Virus record (IMG/VR): IMGVR_UViG_2526164595_000015
Span: 1 to 53,703 of that record
Length of the DNA: 53,703 nucleotides
DNA from: a virus
Taxonomy: Duplodnaviria; Heunggongvirae; Uroviricota; Caudoviricetes
Reading direction: 5' to 3' (one strand)
In this document: piece after piece, positions 25,501 to 36,157 of the stretch
How positions within the stretch are numbered: the stretch's first letter is position 1
Layout: each line of letters starts with the position of its first letter
Program-made: the position numbers and the translations under genes
Notes under the pieces: generated by a model
What the model saw: the letters and a program-made list of their open reading frames with translations, nothing else
The model's database searches: none
Told to the model about the DNA's origin: nothing

Positions 25501-25550
25501 TTCCGCGCCGCCCGCCCCGTGTTCAGGCCCACCCCACCAGGAGGACCCGC
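25501..25550 (-). repeat. cos-like GC-rich element, island copy A
   Basis: ~50-bp motif shared with 28038..28089 and 36107..36157; minus-strand core GGGGCGGGCGGCGCGG resembles lambda cosN. Confidence 0.6.
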
Positions 25551-25573
25551 AAAAAAGGCGGCTGGTGCCGCCT
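25551..25573 (-). terminator. rho-independent terminator after island capsid gene
   Basis: ggcggc-acca-gccgcc followed by TTTTTT on the minus strand. Confidence 0.65.
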
Positions 25574-25578
25574 TGTTG

Positions 25579-26871
25579 TCATAGTGAATCTGTCCCGCCT
25601 GATTTGACCATACCGCGATAATCCAGAGCGGCCACACCTGCATCAATACGGACTTTCCAGGCCACGCCGTCAACGATAAAACCTTCCTGCTGTTCAAGGT
25701 AAGGCTCGTCATTGCCATCAAGATAAGCCACCTCGATTGTGTCCGTTCCCTGTGCGGAAAGCATGTACCATTGTTTTTCGCTGATATCATCAAGGCGGGG
25801 ATCGACGATGATATCAAGTAGCTTGTGATACGGGTTAAAGATCCCGCTGTTTTTATCAGCCCCGAAAGGTGCGGTTGAGTTAATCATCTGCAACGCGCGA
25901 TCTTCCAGTGCTGCCGGAACTAAAAGGAATTTAGGCGCAATATTCAGCACTTCGCCATTTTTGTCCTTCTGTGTGCGCATCAGGTGACGTGCTGCACTAA
26001 GTCCCGGTGTTGTCAGTCCTGCTTCAATCAGGTTGCTGTGTTTTTTATCAAACAGCGTTATTCCGTCAGAAAGTTTTACGTTGCCTGTAAGCACCAGATT
26101 AACCAGATTTCCCACCGTTCTTGATGCTGCACGGCCCATAGCCATTGGCACCGTTGATAACTGATCAAGGTCATCATTGATTATCGCCTGGCGGGTAATG
26201 CTGAAAATATTCCCGTAAGTAGCCAGCGCGATGGGTTCACCGCGATCGCTGGTGGTGATGTATTTATATTCTGCCCCTTCCGGCACTTTGTTTAACGTTG
26301 AGAAGCCATTCATACCAACGCGGCGGGCTTCCCGGAAGTTTGAAAGGGAACCTTTTTTCGTCCACTGGCGGAATGTTTCGCCGCTGTGCTCCCAGCCTGC
26401 AAGCACTGATTTTTCAGCGCCACCAGCAAGGATATCGGTAAAATCGCTGCTGCTGTGGGTGAATGCCGCGTTTACTATCTGCGAGCGTGTGCTGTAGCTG
26501 CCCGTGCTTATACCACGATGGGTTAATGATGCCTGTGCCATATCGAAAAGGCTCATCATGGCGTAAGGATTACCGCGTTCGGCCCGTTCGTGACCAAGAC
26601 GCGCATTAAGCCCCTGACGCATGGCATCGCCGGTTATATTGCCGTTATCCGTGTACGCGTAGTAAAGATTTGCGGGGGTGGTTTTGTTTGTTGGCGTTGA
26701 TTCTTTACCCATAGCGAGTAAAAGGCGTTCGCGTGCATTCTCAACGCTACATTCTGAATCCGCAAGACAACTTATAGCCAGGTCGTTATATCTTCCGTTG
26801 AAGGTGCCAAACAATTCACGGATTCCGTTAAGTCGTTCCTGTTCGCCACTGCCAGTTTTCTGGCTGATCAT
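25579..26871 (-). CDS. island-encoded HK97-fold major capsid protein
   Basis: 430 aa, collinear with the C-terminal capsid region of the prophage gene at 19864..21822 (shared blocks such as EGAEYKY..T, ITRQAIINDDL, TIEVAYL.G). Confidence 0.85.
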   Translation of the reverse strand: MISQKTGSGEQERLNGIRELFGTFNGRYNDLAISCLADSECSVENARERLLLAMGKESTPTNKTTPANLYYAYTDNGNITGDAMRQGLNARLGHERAERGNPYAMMSLFDMAQASLTHRGISTGSYSTRSQIVNAAFTHSSSDFTDILAGGAEKSVLAGWEHSGETFRQWTKKGSLSNFREARRVGMNGFSTLNKVPEGAEYKYITTSDRGEPIALATYGNIFSITRQAIINDDLDQLSTVPMAMGRAASRTVGNLVNLVLTGNVKLSDGITLFDKKHSNLIEAGLTTPGLSAARHLMRTQKDKNGEVLNIAPKFLLVPAALEDRALQMINSTAPFGADKNSGIFNPYHKLLDIIVDPRLDDISEKQWYMLSAQGTDTIEVAYLDGNDEPYLEQQEGFIVDGVAWKVRIDAGVAALDYRGMVKSGGTDSL

Positions 26872-27467
26872 GCTTTTAATTTTTCCGGCATATTTGAAAA
26901 ATCTCCGATTCGTTTTGATTCAATTCGGGCCATTGCTGTAATCGCGGGTATAACCTCATCTGCGAAGCCGTTAGCCTTACACTCATTGCCATCCATCCAG
27001 GTTTCCGCCTCCATCATTGAGGTGATCTCCTGTTTGCTCCTGCCCGTTCTTCCGGCGTAGGTTTCCGCCATCGTGTCGCCCAGCTTGTCCATCAGGTCAG
27101 CAAAGCGGCGAACGTCGCCCGACACTCCGGCAGTAACACCACGGGGGGCATGTATCATCATCATCGCGTTTTCAGGCATAACGATGTGATCGCCACACAT
27201 GGCAATAAACGAGGCCATAGAAGCCGCCATGCCTTCAATGTGTACAATTTTCTTTGCCGGATGATTTTTCAGGGCGTTATAGATAGCCAGCCCTTCAAAG
27301 ATGTCGCCACCAGGTGAATGGATGCGAAGATGGATTTCAGACGCATTACCGCACGCGTTGATCTCGTCAGTAAGTGTCGATGCTTTTACACCGTACCCGC
27401 CGATCTCGTCATAAATACGCACATAGACAACATCTGCCATAGCCTTAATGGAAAACCATGTTTTCAT
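26868..27467 (-). CDS. island-encoded ClpP-like prohead protease
   Basis: 199 aa with HSPGGDIFEG and GMAASMAS motifs, homologous to the N-terminal region of the prophage fused gene; ATGA overlap with capsid gene. Confidence 0.85.
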   Translation of the reverse strand: MKTWFSIKAMADVVYVRIYDEIGGYGVKASTLTDEINACGNASEIHLRIHSPGGDIFEGLAIYNALKNHPAKKIVHIEGMAASMASFIAMCGDHIVMPENAMMMIHAPRGVTAGVSGDVRRFADLMDKLGDTMAETYAGRTGRSKQEITSMMEAETWMDGNECKANGFADEVIPAITAMARIESKRIGDFSNMPEKLKA

Positions 27468-27691
27468 AGCCAGGCTCCTAACGTTGCCTGGTACCAGTAT
27501 TCAACCGCGCTGCGTGTGATTTGTCCTTTCGTGGGTACCGGCATACCCGGGTGATTATCTTTGATGAACTGCTGATAGCGTTCGATCTTCTCCATAGTTC
27601 CGGCGTCTATGTGTACCGTGGCACTTTTATCCGGCTTTCTGGTGTTGTTCTCTGGCATAAATCCGCCTCCGTTTTGATTAACGGGCATCAT
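27464..27691 (-). CDS. hypothetical 75-aa protein, first gene of the island protease-capsid operon
   Basis: ORF directly downstream of cos-like element B, translationally coupled to the protease gene. Confidence 0.45.
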   Translation of the reverse strand: MMPVNQNGGGFMPENNTRKPDKSATVHIDAGTMEKIERYQQFIKDNHPGMPVPTKGQITRSAVEYWYQATLGAWL

Positions 27692-34400: not shown

Positions 34401-35393
34401 CTACATCCAGAAACTGGCGATACGGGAGCGGCGCGGTTCACCGGAAACGTTGCCGTTACGATCAATGACCTGACCTTCACGCAACCAGACTCCTGCACTA
34501 TTGAGCTCACGCTTTTTCTCCGCAGTGATAATGCCGCTGCAGTGCGGGCAAAGTAGATACGCCGCCTCACTGGCTTTAAAGGGATCCGGTTCATTACGGT
34601 AGCCGGTCATGGCATCCATAGCTGGCTGAAAATATTCACCGCAGTGCGGACATGGCCAGTACCAGCGGCGGCGGTCACCACGATTGTAAAGGGAAAGAAT
34701 ACCAGTCGTCGGTGGCGCTTCATGAGGCGACTTACGTCGCCATTTGCTGTCGCAGATGTCACGTCCCGGCGAGCTCTCCACCAGAGTCATCCCGGCGGAC
34801 ATAAATGTGGTGGTACGTTTTGAGGCCAGGGAGAAACCATCACCCTCGCTGTCGATATTCTCCGGAAAACGGTCGTAATCGGTTAAGGCGACAAACCGGT
34901 AATCCGACGACGACATAATGTTGACCGAGGGCCAACCAATTTTAAGGAACGAGCCATCCCTGAACGTCTTATCATGGACATTATTGTCGTTACGACGTGG
35001 ACTCATTCTTTTCTTTACCGCCGCACTGCTTCTGAACGTTCTGTCGAGGCGCTTTTTAGAATGCTCGCGGGCCTTATCTTCGGTCATCTGCACAACGAGC
35101 ATGTCCGAAGGATCGCAAACGATGGTATAGACAATCCATCCATCGATCAGACCAATGGTCTTCCCTGTTCGCGCAGGACCAACAAAAATCACCGCATCGT
35201 ATTCACGCGATGCCAGGCAGTTCATGGGCTCAATGATGTAGGGTGTCAGTTCAGGATCCCATGGCACCGAGTTACCAGCCCCCTTGGGAACACGCATGAA
35301 TTTTTTAACAGCCTCCGAAATCGGCATGCGACGTGGTGGGGAAAATCCTGCCGATATGTCCCTTCCCAAATTTCGGGCTGATGAAAAACCCAT
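34401..35393 (-). CDS. terL: terminase large subunit, N-terminal (ATPase) portion; truncated by the island
   Basis: 330 aa with Walker A VGPARTGKT and PCPHCGEYF motif resembling lambda gpA; ends …RIASFWM then TAG at the junction. Confidence 0.85.
   Translation of the reverse strand: MGFSSARNLGRDISAGFSPPRRMPISEAVKKFMRVPKGAGNSVPWDPELTPYIIEPMNCLASREYDAVIFVGPARTGKTIGLIDGWIVYTIVCDPSDMLVVQMTEDKAREHSKKRLDRTFRSSAAVKKRMSPRRNDNNVHDKTFRDGSFLKIGWPSVNIMSSSDYRFVALTDYDRFPENIDSEGDGFSLASKRTTTFMSAGMTLVESSPGRDICDSKWRRKSPHEAPPTTGILSLYNRGDRRRWYWPCPHCGEYFQPAMDAMTGYRNEPDPFKASEAAYLLCPHCSGIITAEKKRELNSAGVWLREGQVIDRNGNVSGEPRRSRIASFWM
34404..34413. repeat. right copy of 10-bp direct repeat (CATCCAGAAA) at island/terL junction (putative att core)
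   Basis: Matches 24663..24672 with one mismatch. Confidence 0.7.
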
Positions 35394-35401
35394 TATTCCT
35401 C

Positions 35402-35941
35402 CTAGAGACTCTCTCCTTCCTCATCAGGAATTAATTCAGCAGCACAAGCCTCGTAGGATTTTTCCTGAAGAGTGTATCGCAGGTCATCAATGGCCTGCTG
35501 TACAACGCCGACGGCCTGAGGAGTCAGGGCGCAATCGCGTTCAAGAACATCCGGAATTGTCTCCAGAACCTGGACGACAGCCTTTCTCATGGACGAATAG
35601 ACGATGACTACTTCATCAACTGGGATGAGTTTTCGCTGCTCCTTTTCCAGCTTGATCCTTTCATTTTCAGACTGGTACCAGTCCTTTCTCTCTTTCGGCT
35701 CCATACGGGATGGATCATGAACAGAGTCTGCTGCCTCATGCTTCACACTAAACAGGGCGGGCCCGACATGCTGCAGGGCGTAAACGGGGTTCCCCCTGAC
35801 AGTCGCAGCCACAGGAGTGTTGGCCGCGAGGAGCCGTTTTTTTACTGTGTCCCGGTGAAGCCCAAAGGCCTCGGCGATTTTAAAAACACTCCAGTAATAA
35901 GCATCACCGATCCCGCTCACATTTGACATAAGCAACTCCAT
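35402..35941 (-). CDS. terS: terminase small subunit (Nu1-like, N-terminal HTH)
   Basis: 179 aa directly upstream of terL and downstream of the cos-like element. Confidence 0.75.
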   Translation of the reverse strand: MELLMSNVSGIGDAYYWSVFKIAEAFGLHRDTVKKRLLAANTPVAATVRGNPVYALQHVGPALFSVKHEAADSVHDPSRMEPKERKDWYQSENERIKLEKEQRKLIPVDEVVIVYSSMRKAVVQVLETIPDVLERDCALTPQAVGVVQQAIDDLRYTLQEKSYEACAAELIPDEEGESL

Positions 35942-36106
35942 CTGGCAGGTGAAAATCAGGTTTATTTATATATTTCAATTAATTGCAAACTGGTCTAATG
36001 ACAGGGAGAAAAAAATATTGTACAGGTGAAAAGAGAAATAACTTTTAATTATCAATAAATTACCAAACATGCTGCCGCCGCCATGGAAATGCAAAAACTA
36101 GTCTTT

Positions 36107-36157
36107 TTCCGCGACGCTCCCGCCCCGTGGCAGGCCACCCCACCGGAAGGACCCGCC
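36107..36157 (-). repeat. prophage cos site candidate (cosN-like core)
   Basis: Minus-strand core GGGGCGGGAGCGTCGCGGAAAAAG resembles lambda cosN; ~180 bp upstream of terS, as in lambda. Confidence 0.6.

Follow-up and report, generated by a model that had tools for sequence, protein, structure and literature searches.

Lambda-like cos sites with different cosB regions in a satellite island of Escherichia coli and in the prophage that carries it

Three cos-like elements in a prophage and an embedded island

The window analysed here is a stretch of 53,703 nucleotides from a virus of the Caudoviricetes (IMG/VR record IMGVR_UViG_2526164595_000015, positions 1 to 53,703), and it is identical to Escherichia coli O111:H21 strain 15A (NZ_CP077477) except for two 1-nt homopolymer indels. 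It carries a prophage whose terL gene is interrupted by a satellite island with the gene order int (tyrosine integrase), a helix-turn-helix (HTH)/AlpA-like gene, BRO-N, an Icd-like gene, DUF4222, RepA helicase, SSB, cos B, orf75, protease-capsid, cos A and orf93. The subject of this analysis is a GC-rich motif resembling the cos site of lambda, which an earlier note on this DNA had placed at 25501-25550 (copy A), 28038-28089 (copy B) and 36107-36157 (copy C). The motif was found at these positions on the minus strand, on which the elements are read and which also carries all genes of the region. A 20-nt core pattern allowing up to 3 mismatches gave exactly three matches in the window compared to 0.01 expected from shuffles, and the pattern GGGTCCT-N(10-35)-GGGGCGG also gave exactly three compared to 0.02 expected. 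By homology, A, B and C are lambda-family cos sites, each composed of cosQ, cosN and a cosB-like region. The features of the three copies are the following.

25551..25574, minus strand: hairpin followed by U6, intrinsic-terminator-like, at the end of the capsid operon and abutting cosQ of A (RNA fold)
25542..25548, minus strand: cosQ of A, GGGTCCT, unchanged in 7/7 related islands
25506..25517, minus strand: predicted cosN/cohesive-end region of A, GGGCGGGCGGCG, 2 bp shorter between conserved flanks than in B, C and lambda
25322..25505, minus strand: cosB-like region of A, with an R3-like CATCATCATCAT block at 25461-25474, a near-consensus IHF site and an inverted GATGATGA; VT1-Sakai/Stx (Shiga toxin)-phage type
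28090..28115, minus strand: hairpin followed by U6 after ssb, intrinsic-terminator-like, abutting cosQ of B (RNA fold)
28081..28087, minus strand: cosQ of B, GGGTCCT here and AGGTACT in 6/6 related islands
28045..28056, minus strand: predicted cosN/cohesive-end region of B, GGGCGGGAGGGG, a chimera with an EcCIDi14-like cosQ side and an O121-island-like cosB side
27900..28044, minus strand: cosB-like region of B, with an R3-like CACCATCACCACCAC block at 27997-28011 and a perfect IHF consensus at 27982-27994; CP-1639/1720a-02/ATCC 43889 type, with 92.3% identity over ~168 nt
36148..36154, minus strand: cosQ of C (pattern and alignment with lambda)
36114..36125, minus strand: predicted cosN/left cohesive end of C, GGGCGGGAGCGT, where the phage records cdtI and Tritos have their coordinate 1
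35942..36113, minus strand: cosB of C, with an R3-like GGCGGCGGCAGC block at 36068-36082, a perfect IHF consensus at 36050-36062 and two copies of the direct repeat TTTTCACCTG

The three copies were aligned (MAFFT) with the lambda end-junction and with cos1 and cos2 of the phage-inducible chromosomal island (PICI) EcCICFT073. All sequences aligned in register, and the likeness to lambda cosN suggested by the note was confirmed, with cosQ GGGTCCT and ACG/GGGCGG in line. The order is an invariant cosQ GGGTCCT, a spacer of 22-24 bp, ACG/GGGCGG, a conserved CGCGG and a T-rich segment. From cosQ to the nick, the spacer measures 24 bp in A, 24 bp in B and 22 bp in C, compared to 23 bp in lambda. ACG/GGGCGG.../CGCGG is common to A, B and C and the right half of cosN is variable; this half also varies among natural phages (PMC4669245). 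The predicted left ends are located at 25517 (A), 28056 (B) and 36125 (C). A and B have the same orientation and are separated by 2,539 bp, and the remainder of the island circle measures 7,202 bp.

The phage records cdtI and Tritos, which are 99.2-99.5% identical to the window, begin at window position 36125, the predicted left cohesive end of C. This end lies 184 nt upstream of the ATG of terS at 35941, close to the ~180 bp that had been proposed by comparison with lambda, where nu1 starts at nt 191. Only C occupies such a position ~190 bp upstream of terS: A is followed by orf93 and B by orf75, without terS, as expected of satellite cos sites. C is the own cos of the resident cdtI/Tritos-like prophage. 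The alignment and the starts of the phage records support the view that the three elements are lambda-type cos sites, one belonging to the prophage and two to the island.

The conserved unit proved larger than the ~50-bp element described at first, as it comprises the terminator, cosQ, the 22-24 bp spacer, cosN and a cosB-like region of ~190 bp. That the island copies follow a terminator and precede an operon was verified: a hairpin with U6 abuts A (-15.8 kcal/mol, z -3.1) and B (-19.0 kcal/mol, z -4.35), A precedes orf93 and B precedes orf75-protease-capsid. RNA folding identified the two minus-strand hairpins, which a simple terminator scan did not call, and none was found at C. A GC hairpin with a U-run abutting cosQ is also present at EcCICFT073 cos1 and at both sites of EcCIDi14, the island of E. 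coli clone D i14, all of them PICI cos sites after a gene end, but not at EcCICFT073 cos2; the phage cos sites (lambda, VT1-type, ATCC 43889 and C) carry a GATAATCATTATC-like palindrome at the position of the hairpin. The ~150 bp of downstream flank said to be shared by A and B was only partly upheld: the blocks GGTTGTTTTTTGTTC and TTTACAAAAAA are common to both, but the sharing is modest, with an identity beyond bp 45 of 98/155 between A and B versus 96/155 between A and C.

The succession of GGGTCCT, 22-24 bp and ACGGGGCGG provides a signature for calling cos sites of prophages and satellites from sequence. Used as a contig search, the looser pattern GGGTCCTN{20,26}ACGGGGCGG was too unspecific: the matches listed were mostly chance ones in high-GC Actinobacteria and metagenome-assembled genomes, and among them were 3 relevant enterobacterial loci, each with a single phage-type cos.

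cosB types and the cosQ of copy B

The R3-equivalent triplet repeat at bp ~43-60 differs in each copy (CATCATCATCAT in A, CACCATCACCACCAC in B and GGCGGCGGCAGC in C), and the inverted partner of the block, GATGATGA, is present in A only. IHF sites predicted from the sequence match the consensus perfectly at bp 63-75 in B and 64-76 in C, and with one mismatch in A. Copy A is ~85% identical, over ~200 bp including cosB, to the cos of VT1-Sakai and several Stx2a phages, and its stretch from cosQ to cosB agrees at 174/204 positions with the cos of an O157-type prophage hosting the same island family in strain 28RC1. Its core is identical to the cos core of the ATCC 43889 prophage, and for this reason the 2-bp "deletion" in cosN of A is not regarded as a defect. 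Copy B belongs to another type: its cosN-cosB stretch shares 92-93% identity over ~168 nt with the cos of CP-1639, 1720a-02 and the ATCC 43889 prophage. The CACCACCAC block of B was also considered as the Rpp site proposed in EcCICFT073 cos1 (ACCACCACC, bp 55-63; PMC9026076); the register differs by 5 bp, and a natural cosB of CP-1639-type phages explains the block better. Reassortment of the cosB module with the cosQ-cosN core is seen among lambdoid prophages: that of ATCC 43889 has the core of island A together with the cosB of B. Their cosN centre varies in length, with 11 to 13 bp between conserved flanks.

In lambda-like phages the specificity of initiation resides in the interaction of TerS with cosB; termination requires cosQ, cosN and I2 and is not cosB-specific (PMC4669245). 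The TerS proteins of A-type and B-type phages are 78% identical overall, with the last ~67 residues identical and 53% identity over the 75 N-terminal alignment columns. A divergent DNA-binding N-terminus with an identical C-terminal segment corresponds to a specificity swap of the lambda/21 kind (PMC4669245, PMC9026076). The presence of two cosB types suggests that helper terminases of two specificities may initiate packaging of the island. The resident TerS shows 36-37% identity to the A-type and B-type proteins alike, and neither island cosB matches that of the resident helper. This double mismatch suggests that the integrase follows a conserved terL target rather than packaging compatibility.

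Seven islands with the same late module were compared, the window and six relatives; their integration sites are terL in two prophage types, tRNA-Ile and the vicinity of clpS. cosQ is canonical at A in all seven, and at B it reads AGGTACT, doubly mutated, in six of the seven, the window being the exception. The R3-like blocks are invariant in the seven islands. The O121-type B core, including AGGTACT, is at least 95% identical in 104 genomes, and no phage record matched it above 88% identity. By comparison, the B region of the window is matched at 99% identity or more by a single record among 5,426 complete E. coli genomes, this strain itself.

Sliding identity revealed a composite structure of the window B, which is 100% EcCIDi14-like from ~28050 through ssb and ~98% O121-island-like below 28036. 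According to the informative bases, the crossover lies within the cohesive-end sequence, between its positions 7 and ~11. Judged from these identities, B of the window is a recombinant with its breakpoint inside the predicted cohesive end. Chimeric cos sites arise when packaging starts at one cos and ends at another, a route used to make lambda/N15 chimeras (Feiss et al., PMC4669245). The window B would be the product expected of such an event, initiation at one cos and termination at another; it is a single case, and ordinary homologous recombination in the conserved core might also have produced it.

The island and its host prophage

The limits of the island were given by cdtI, which aligns to window positions 22501-24669 and 34404-36125 with an overlap of 7 bp, CATCCAG; Tritos likewise matches in two pieces. 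The features of the island and of the surrounding prophage genes are the following.

24670..34410, minus strand: helper-embedded PICI island, 9,741 bp (interrupted cdtI alignment, annotation of NZ_CP077477)
24663..24669, no strand: attachment (att) core CATCCAG on the side of the terL 3' fragment (overlap of the two cdtI alignments)
34404..34410, no strand: att core CATCCAG at the int-proximal junction (overlap of the two cdtI alignments)
34401..35393, minus strand: 5' fragment of the interrupted terL, lambda gpA-type (RefSeq annotation, cdtI alignment)
23553..24665, minus strand: 3' fragment of terL (RefSeq annotation, cdtI alignment)
35402..35941, minus strand: terS of the resident prophage, DUF1441 family, 179 aa (Pfam and PHROG matches)
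25579..27467, minus strand: island gene for a ClpP-like prohead protease/major capsid protein, a 629-aa fusion in the RefSeq record
25040..25321, minus strand: orf93, 93 aa, downstream of cos A, the terminal PICI gene; 78% identical to the EcCICFT073 and EcCIDi14 homologues

The insertion affects TerL codons 328-330, at the boundary of the GpA_ATPase (40-303) and GpA_nuclease (325-643) domains, and the rejoined fragments match the intact cdtI terL at 99% identity. Gram-negative PICIs have been defined as elements of 10-20 kb with int, alpA, pri/rep, unidirectional genes and att repeats and devoid of lysis and tail genes (Fillol-Salom 2018). The island carries int, the HTH protein, RepA helicase, SSB and a 7-bp att core, and its 9,741 bp are just under this size range. 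It lies inside a prophage late gene in the same orientation, and its excision would restore terL; it is a PICI satellite of the helper-embedded kind (HE-PICI), a class described in 2023.

The two differences from NZ_CP077477 are 1-nt deletions in T/A homopolymer runs. One, at 26885, splits the protease-capsid gene into open reading frames (ORFs) of 199 aa and 430 aa in the window; the other, at 31748, opens a 328-aa BRO-N ORF that is annotated as a pseudogene in RefSeq NZ_CP077477. Both are probably sequencing or assembly-version differences. The protease-capsid protein of the island is ~51% identical to its phage homologues, and this low identity to either phage type ruled out a recent capture of the capsid module from a helper.

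Homologues of orf93 are the last gene in EcCICFT073 and EcCIDi14, always directly downstream of cos or rpp/terS, a position that suggests a packaging-related role. It matched no Pfam family, and a PDB search gave weak hits only (E >= 0.27, acyl carrier proteins), none of them Rpp-like. An Rpp or TerS was sought in the island with Pfam, PHROGs, the PDB search of orf93 and tblastn of RppA, lambda Nu1, EcCIDi14 TerS and O157 TerS, and none was detected; tblastn of RppA against the window gave nothing below E = 0.9. As a control, the 144-aa CFT073 protein downstream of cos1 matched RppC (6HLK) at 5e-31. Directly upstream of the capsid gene, orf75 (27464-27691) matched PHROG 4934 (function unknown) and no Pfam family. 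A small ORF occupies the same place in the other PICI type, and by eye the N-termini of both (ATVHIDAGTMEKIERY and VSVYISPDIVKALKER) resemble the beta-strand and helix of ribbon-helix-helix proteins.

The late module (SSB, cos B, protease-capsid, cos A, orf93) is paired with different integration modules, at tRNA-Ile (E2855), near clpS and in terL of two unrelated prophage types (including 28RC1). The early region of the resident prophage is Qin-like (dicB, ydfD, hokD, rem, essD; window ~50500-51750, record 461454-462682, and neighbourhood). In NZ_CP077477, BLAST with the B region gave four places, three of them A, B and C; the fourth, also cos-like, may be part of another prophage whose terminase is of the A or B type.

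Proposed packaging of the island and its alternatives

The earlier note had found two cos sites of the same orientation in one element odd; this was overstated, as the double cos of EcCICFT073 has been demonstrated experimentally (PMC6092414, PMC6739421) and EcCIDi14 also has two direct sites. In EcCICFT073, both cos sites are functional, deletion of cos1 lowered transfer and deletion of cos2 raised it (Fillol-Salom et al. 2018, PMC6092414), Rpp-TerS recognises the cosB of cos1 (Fillol-Salom et al. 2019, PMC6739421), and the island is packaged as phage-length DNA (PMC6092414). The present island has the same gene order (int, alpA, Icd-like, DUF4222, replication genes, SSB, capsid, orf93 at 78%), two cos sites with lambda-like cosQ and cosN and non-identical cosB, and a terminator abutting cosQ as at cos1. 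In contrast, the EcCICFT073 sites are inverted, ~775 bp apart and flank rppA, whereas the sites here lie on either side of the capsid module in direct orientation, 2,539 bp from each other; rpp, encoding the 144-aa protein matching RppC, is directly downstream of its cos1, whereas no Rpp was detected here in the searches described above. Furthermore, both present cosB regions are near-copies of real phage cosB, the cosN of EcCICFT073 is GGGCGGCGACCT compared to GGGCGGG... here, and EcCICFT073 is chromosomal whereas the present island is embedded in a prophage. EcCIDi14 is similar in having two cos sites of the same orientation ~2.44 kb apart that flank the capsid module; its SSB-capsid cos has an A-type (CATCATCAT) cosB, and its segment from SSB to cosQ is 100% identical to that of the window. 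However, EcCIDi14 encodes a Nu1-like TerS of its own, which follows its second cos, a site with a cosN like that of lambda. Instead of a protease-capsid fusion it has a lambda E-like capsid accompanied by a decoration protein, and its integration site is an IS110 transposase gene.

With the HE-PICIs (Tommasini, Mageeney & Williams 2023, PMC10111431), the island shares a location inside the helper late gene cognate to lambda A, co-oriented with it, a tyrosine integrase, an AlpA-like HTH protein, the four-zone organisation and cos similarity with the helper. That paper reports one shared cos region, of 258 bp at 90%, in 11capE, and cos number and cosB type were not analysed there (PMC10111431); the cosB regions of the present island differ in that they do not match those of the embedding prophage. 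The layout predicted here, cosQ-cosN-I2-R3-IHF-R2, is that described for lambda, 21 and N15 by the Feiss laboratory, as are the specificity carried by the TerS N-terminal domain paired with cosB, a termination independent of cosB type and the chimeric cos sites resulting from a start and an end at different cos. Here, however, TerS is of the DUF1441 family and not Nu1, the R3-equivalents are triplet repeats (CAT, CAC or GGC), and the cosN centre has a variable length, 11-13 bp from one conserved flank to the other. Satellites carrying the cos of their helper are also represented by SaPIbov5 and SaPIbov4, PMC6092414 citing two putative cos sites in SaPIbov4 and a capsid homologue, Ccm, in SaPIbov5; these are Gram-positive elements with an HNH-dependent terminase and unrelated sequences, and the redirection of capsid size has been demonstrated for them.

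The explanation that we regard as probable for the whole is that of three lambda-family cos sites, of which C belongs to the prophage, A is the principal cos of the island and B is a second cos of another helper type. We infer from homology that A and B act in packaging of the island, most likely A as the main site and B as an additional one with another helper specificity. Upon induction, the island would excise, restoring terL, and would replicate, by analogy with lambda and EcCICFT073. The TerS-TerL of a helper would bind an island cosB, nick cosN and package island concatemers, and packaging would end at a downstream cosQ and cosN. As in EcCICFT073, multimers would fill phage-sized heads, four units amounting to 39.0 kb and five to 48.7 kb compared to a helper genome of ~47 kb. 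A would be the principal and complete cos, with a cosB of the VT1-Sakai/Stx-phage type; B, with a cosB of the CP-1639/1720a-02 type, would allow initiation by a second helper specificity. By the rules of lambda, the loss of cosQ at B in most relatives would make it an initiation-only site, with no termination 2.5 kb after a start at A and no sub-genomic cutting. In the present strain, recombination within cosN would have brought a canonical cosQ back to B.

Several points weigh against this explanation. In the relatives, the mutated cosQ at B could be no more than a sign of decay. A and B have different predicted cohesive ends, which also differ by 2 bp in length, so that molecules cut at A on one side and at B on the other would anneal badly; mismatches in cohesive ends are tolerated in lambda-like phages (PMC4669245). 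The mismatch of cosB may cause the embedding prophage to package the island poorly; in the work on EcCICFT073, a non-cognate cosB still gave reduced cosmid transfer (PMC6092414). The link between cosB type and TerS type is based on 2, 1 and 2 loci for the three types. Finally, an IS2 insertion, a ydaT pseudogene and tolA fragments are present in the early region of the resident prophage, which may be defective as a helper or not inducible.

The main rival is that only A works and that B is a non-functional scar at the junction of the replication and late modules, left by late-gene capture or phage recombination and kept for the terminator and leader of the capsid operon; we do not favour it but consider it a serious possibility. 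The double substitution of cosQ in 6/6 relatives and the presence, at 95% identity or more, of the O121-type B core carrying it in 104 genomes are in line with a scar; natural variation of cosQ is not seen in lambda-like phages (PMC4669245). Compared with its phage homologue, the O121-type B has diverged, by eye, ~20% in the cosQ-cosN core and ~5% in cosB; module breakpoints cluster at B; transfer of EcCICFT073 was not reduced by deletion of cos2 (PMC6092414); and PICIs are known to capture helper late genes (PMC10111431). However, B has kept the perfect IHF consensus, the I2-like region, the CG flanks, the R3-like block and the left part (half) of cosN, at 92-93% identity to real phage cos, and its R3 block is invariant in 7/7 islands. 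A neutral relic should decay evenly and not only at cosQ. In addition, any capture must be ancient as the capsid gene is only 51% identical to phage homologues.

Two other explanations appear much weaker. A and B might both be cut in one packaging series, giving pieces of 2.5 kb and 7.2 kb, or four units plus 7.2 kb, that is 46.2 kb, so that B would tune DNA length to the capsid. The canonical cosQ and cosN of both copies in the same orientation 2,539 bp apart, the diverged protease-capsid protein of the island and the sizes of plain multimers (only 39.0 or 48.7 kb versus a helper of ~47 kb) would accord with such a scheme. We nevertheless regard it as improbable, as the canonical cosQ at B, unique to this strain among the 5,426 genomes, is not the design of the family; the predicted ends of A and B differ in sequence and length, the 2.5-kb fragment would lack int and the replication genes, and two cos sites and a capsid gene do not prevent EcCICFT073 from being packaged as phage-length DNA (PMC6092414). 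The other alternative is a generic chromosomal repeat, similar to repetitive extragenic palindromic (REP) sequences or bacterial interspersed mosaic elements (BIME), or a terminator/leader element without a role in packaging, the motif being GC-rich, intergenic, repeated and adjacent to hairpins. A REP-like repeat had been named by the note as an outcome that would overturn its proposal, and the distribution is not that of such a repeat, which would have tens to hundreds of copies per genome, dispersed over intergenic regions: the A region is present in 966 of the 5,426 complete genomes, the A and B regions occupy a median of 1 place per genome with a maximum of 7-8, and at a query coverage of at least 80% they are found in 144 (A) and 145 (B) genomes. 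Every context inspected was a PICI/satellite island or a site just upstream of a prophage terS, and an Rfam search of the motif matched no family. The base-for-base alignment with lambda cosQ-cosN and the phage records that start inside the motif also argue against it, and the hairpins are outside the conserved core and differ between copies. This explanation is already refuted by distribution and homology, and we give it almost no weight.

Carried further, three lambda-family cos sites with two helper types would suggest a broader scheme, which we advance tentatively and consider rather unlikely to hold in all its parts. The double cos of PICIs would be a helper-range device combining a shared core with cosB regions of different helpers (VT1-Sakai, CP-1639), B would be initiation-only through its inactivated cosQ, and cosN would be a junction for module shuffling by terminase cut-and-anneal, of which the window B would be an example. 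PICI cos sites, double PICI cos and helper-embedded PICIs were already known; the pairing of heterotypic phage-type cosB regions and the cosQ-defective or chimeric B are new, and we put both forward as hypotheses. Heterotypic cosB pairs provide a concrete candidate answer to the question of why PICIs have two cos sites, and the cosQ-defective allele of B offers a natural test of the separability of the signals for packaging initiation and termination. The island family is present in ~145 of the 5,426 complete E. coli genomes, including Shiga toxin-producing strains of serogroups O111, O121, O145 and O157. Given the match between the island cos sites and those of Shiga-toxin-converting phages, Stx phages probably mobilise these satellites, which may in turn interfere with the phages.

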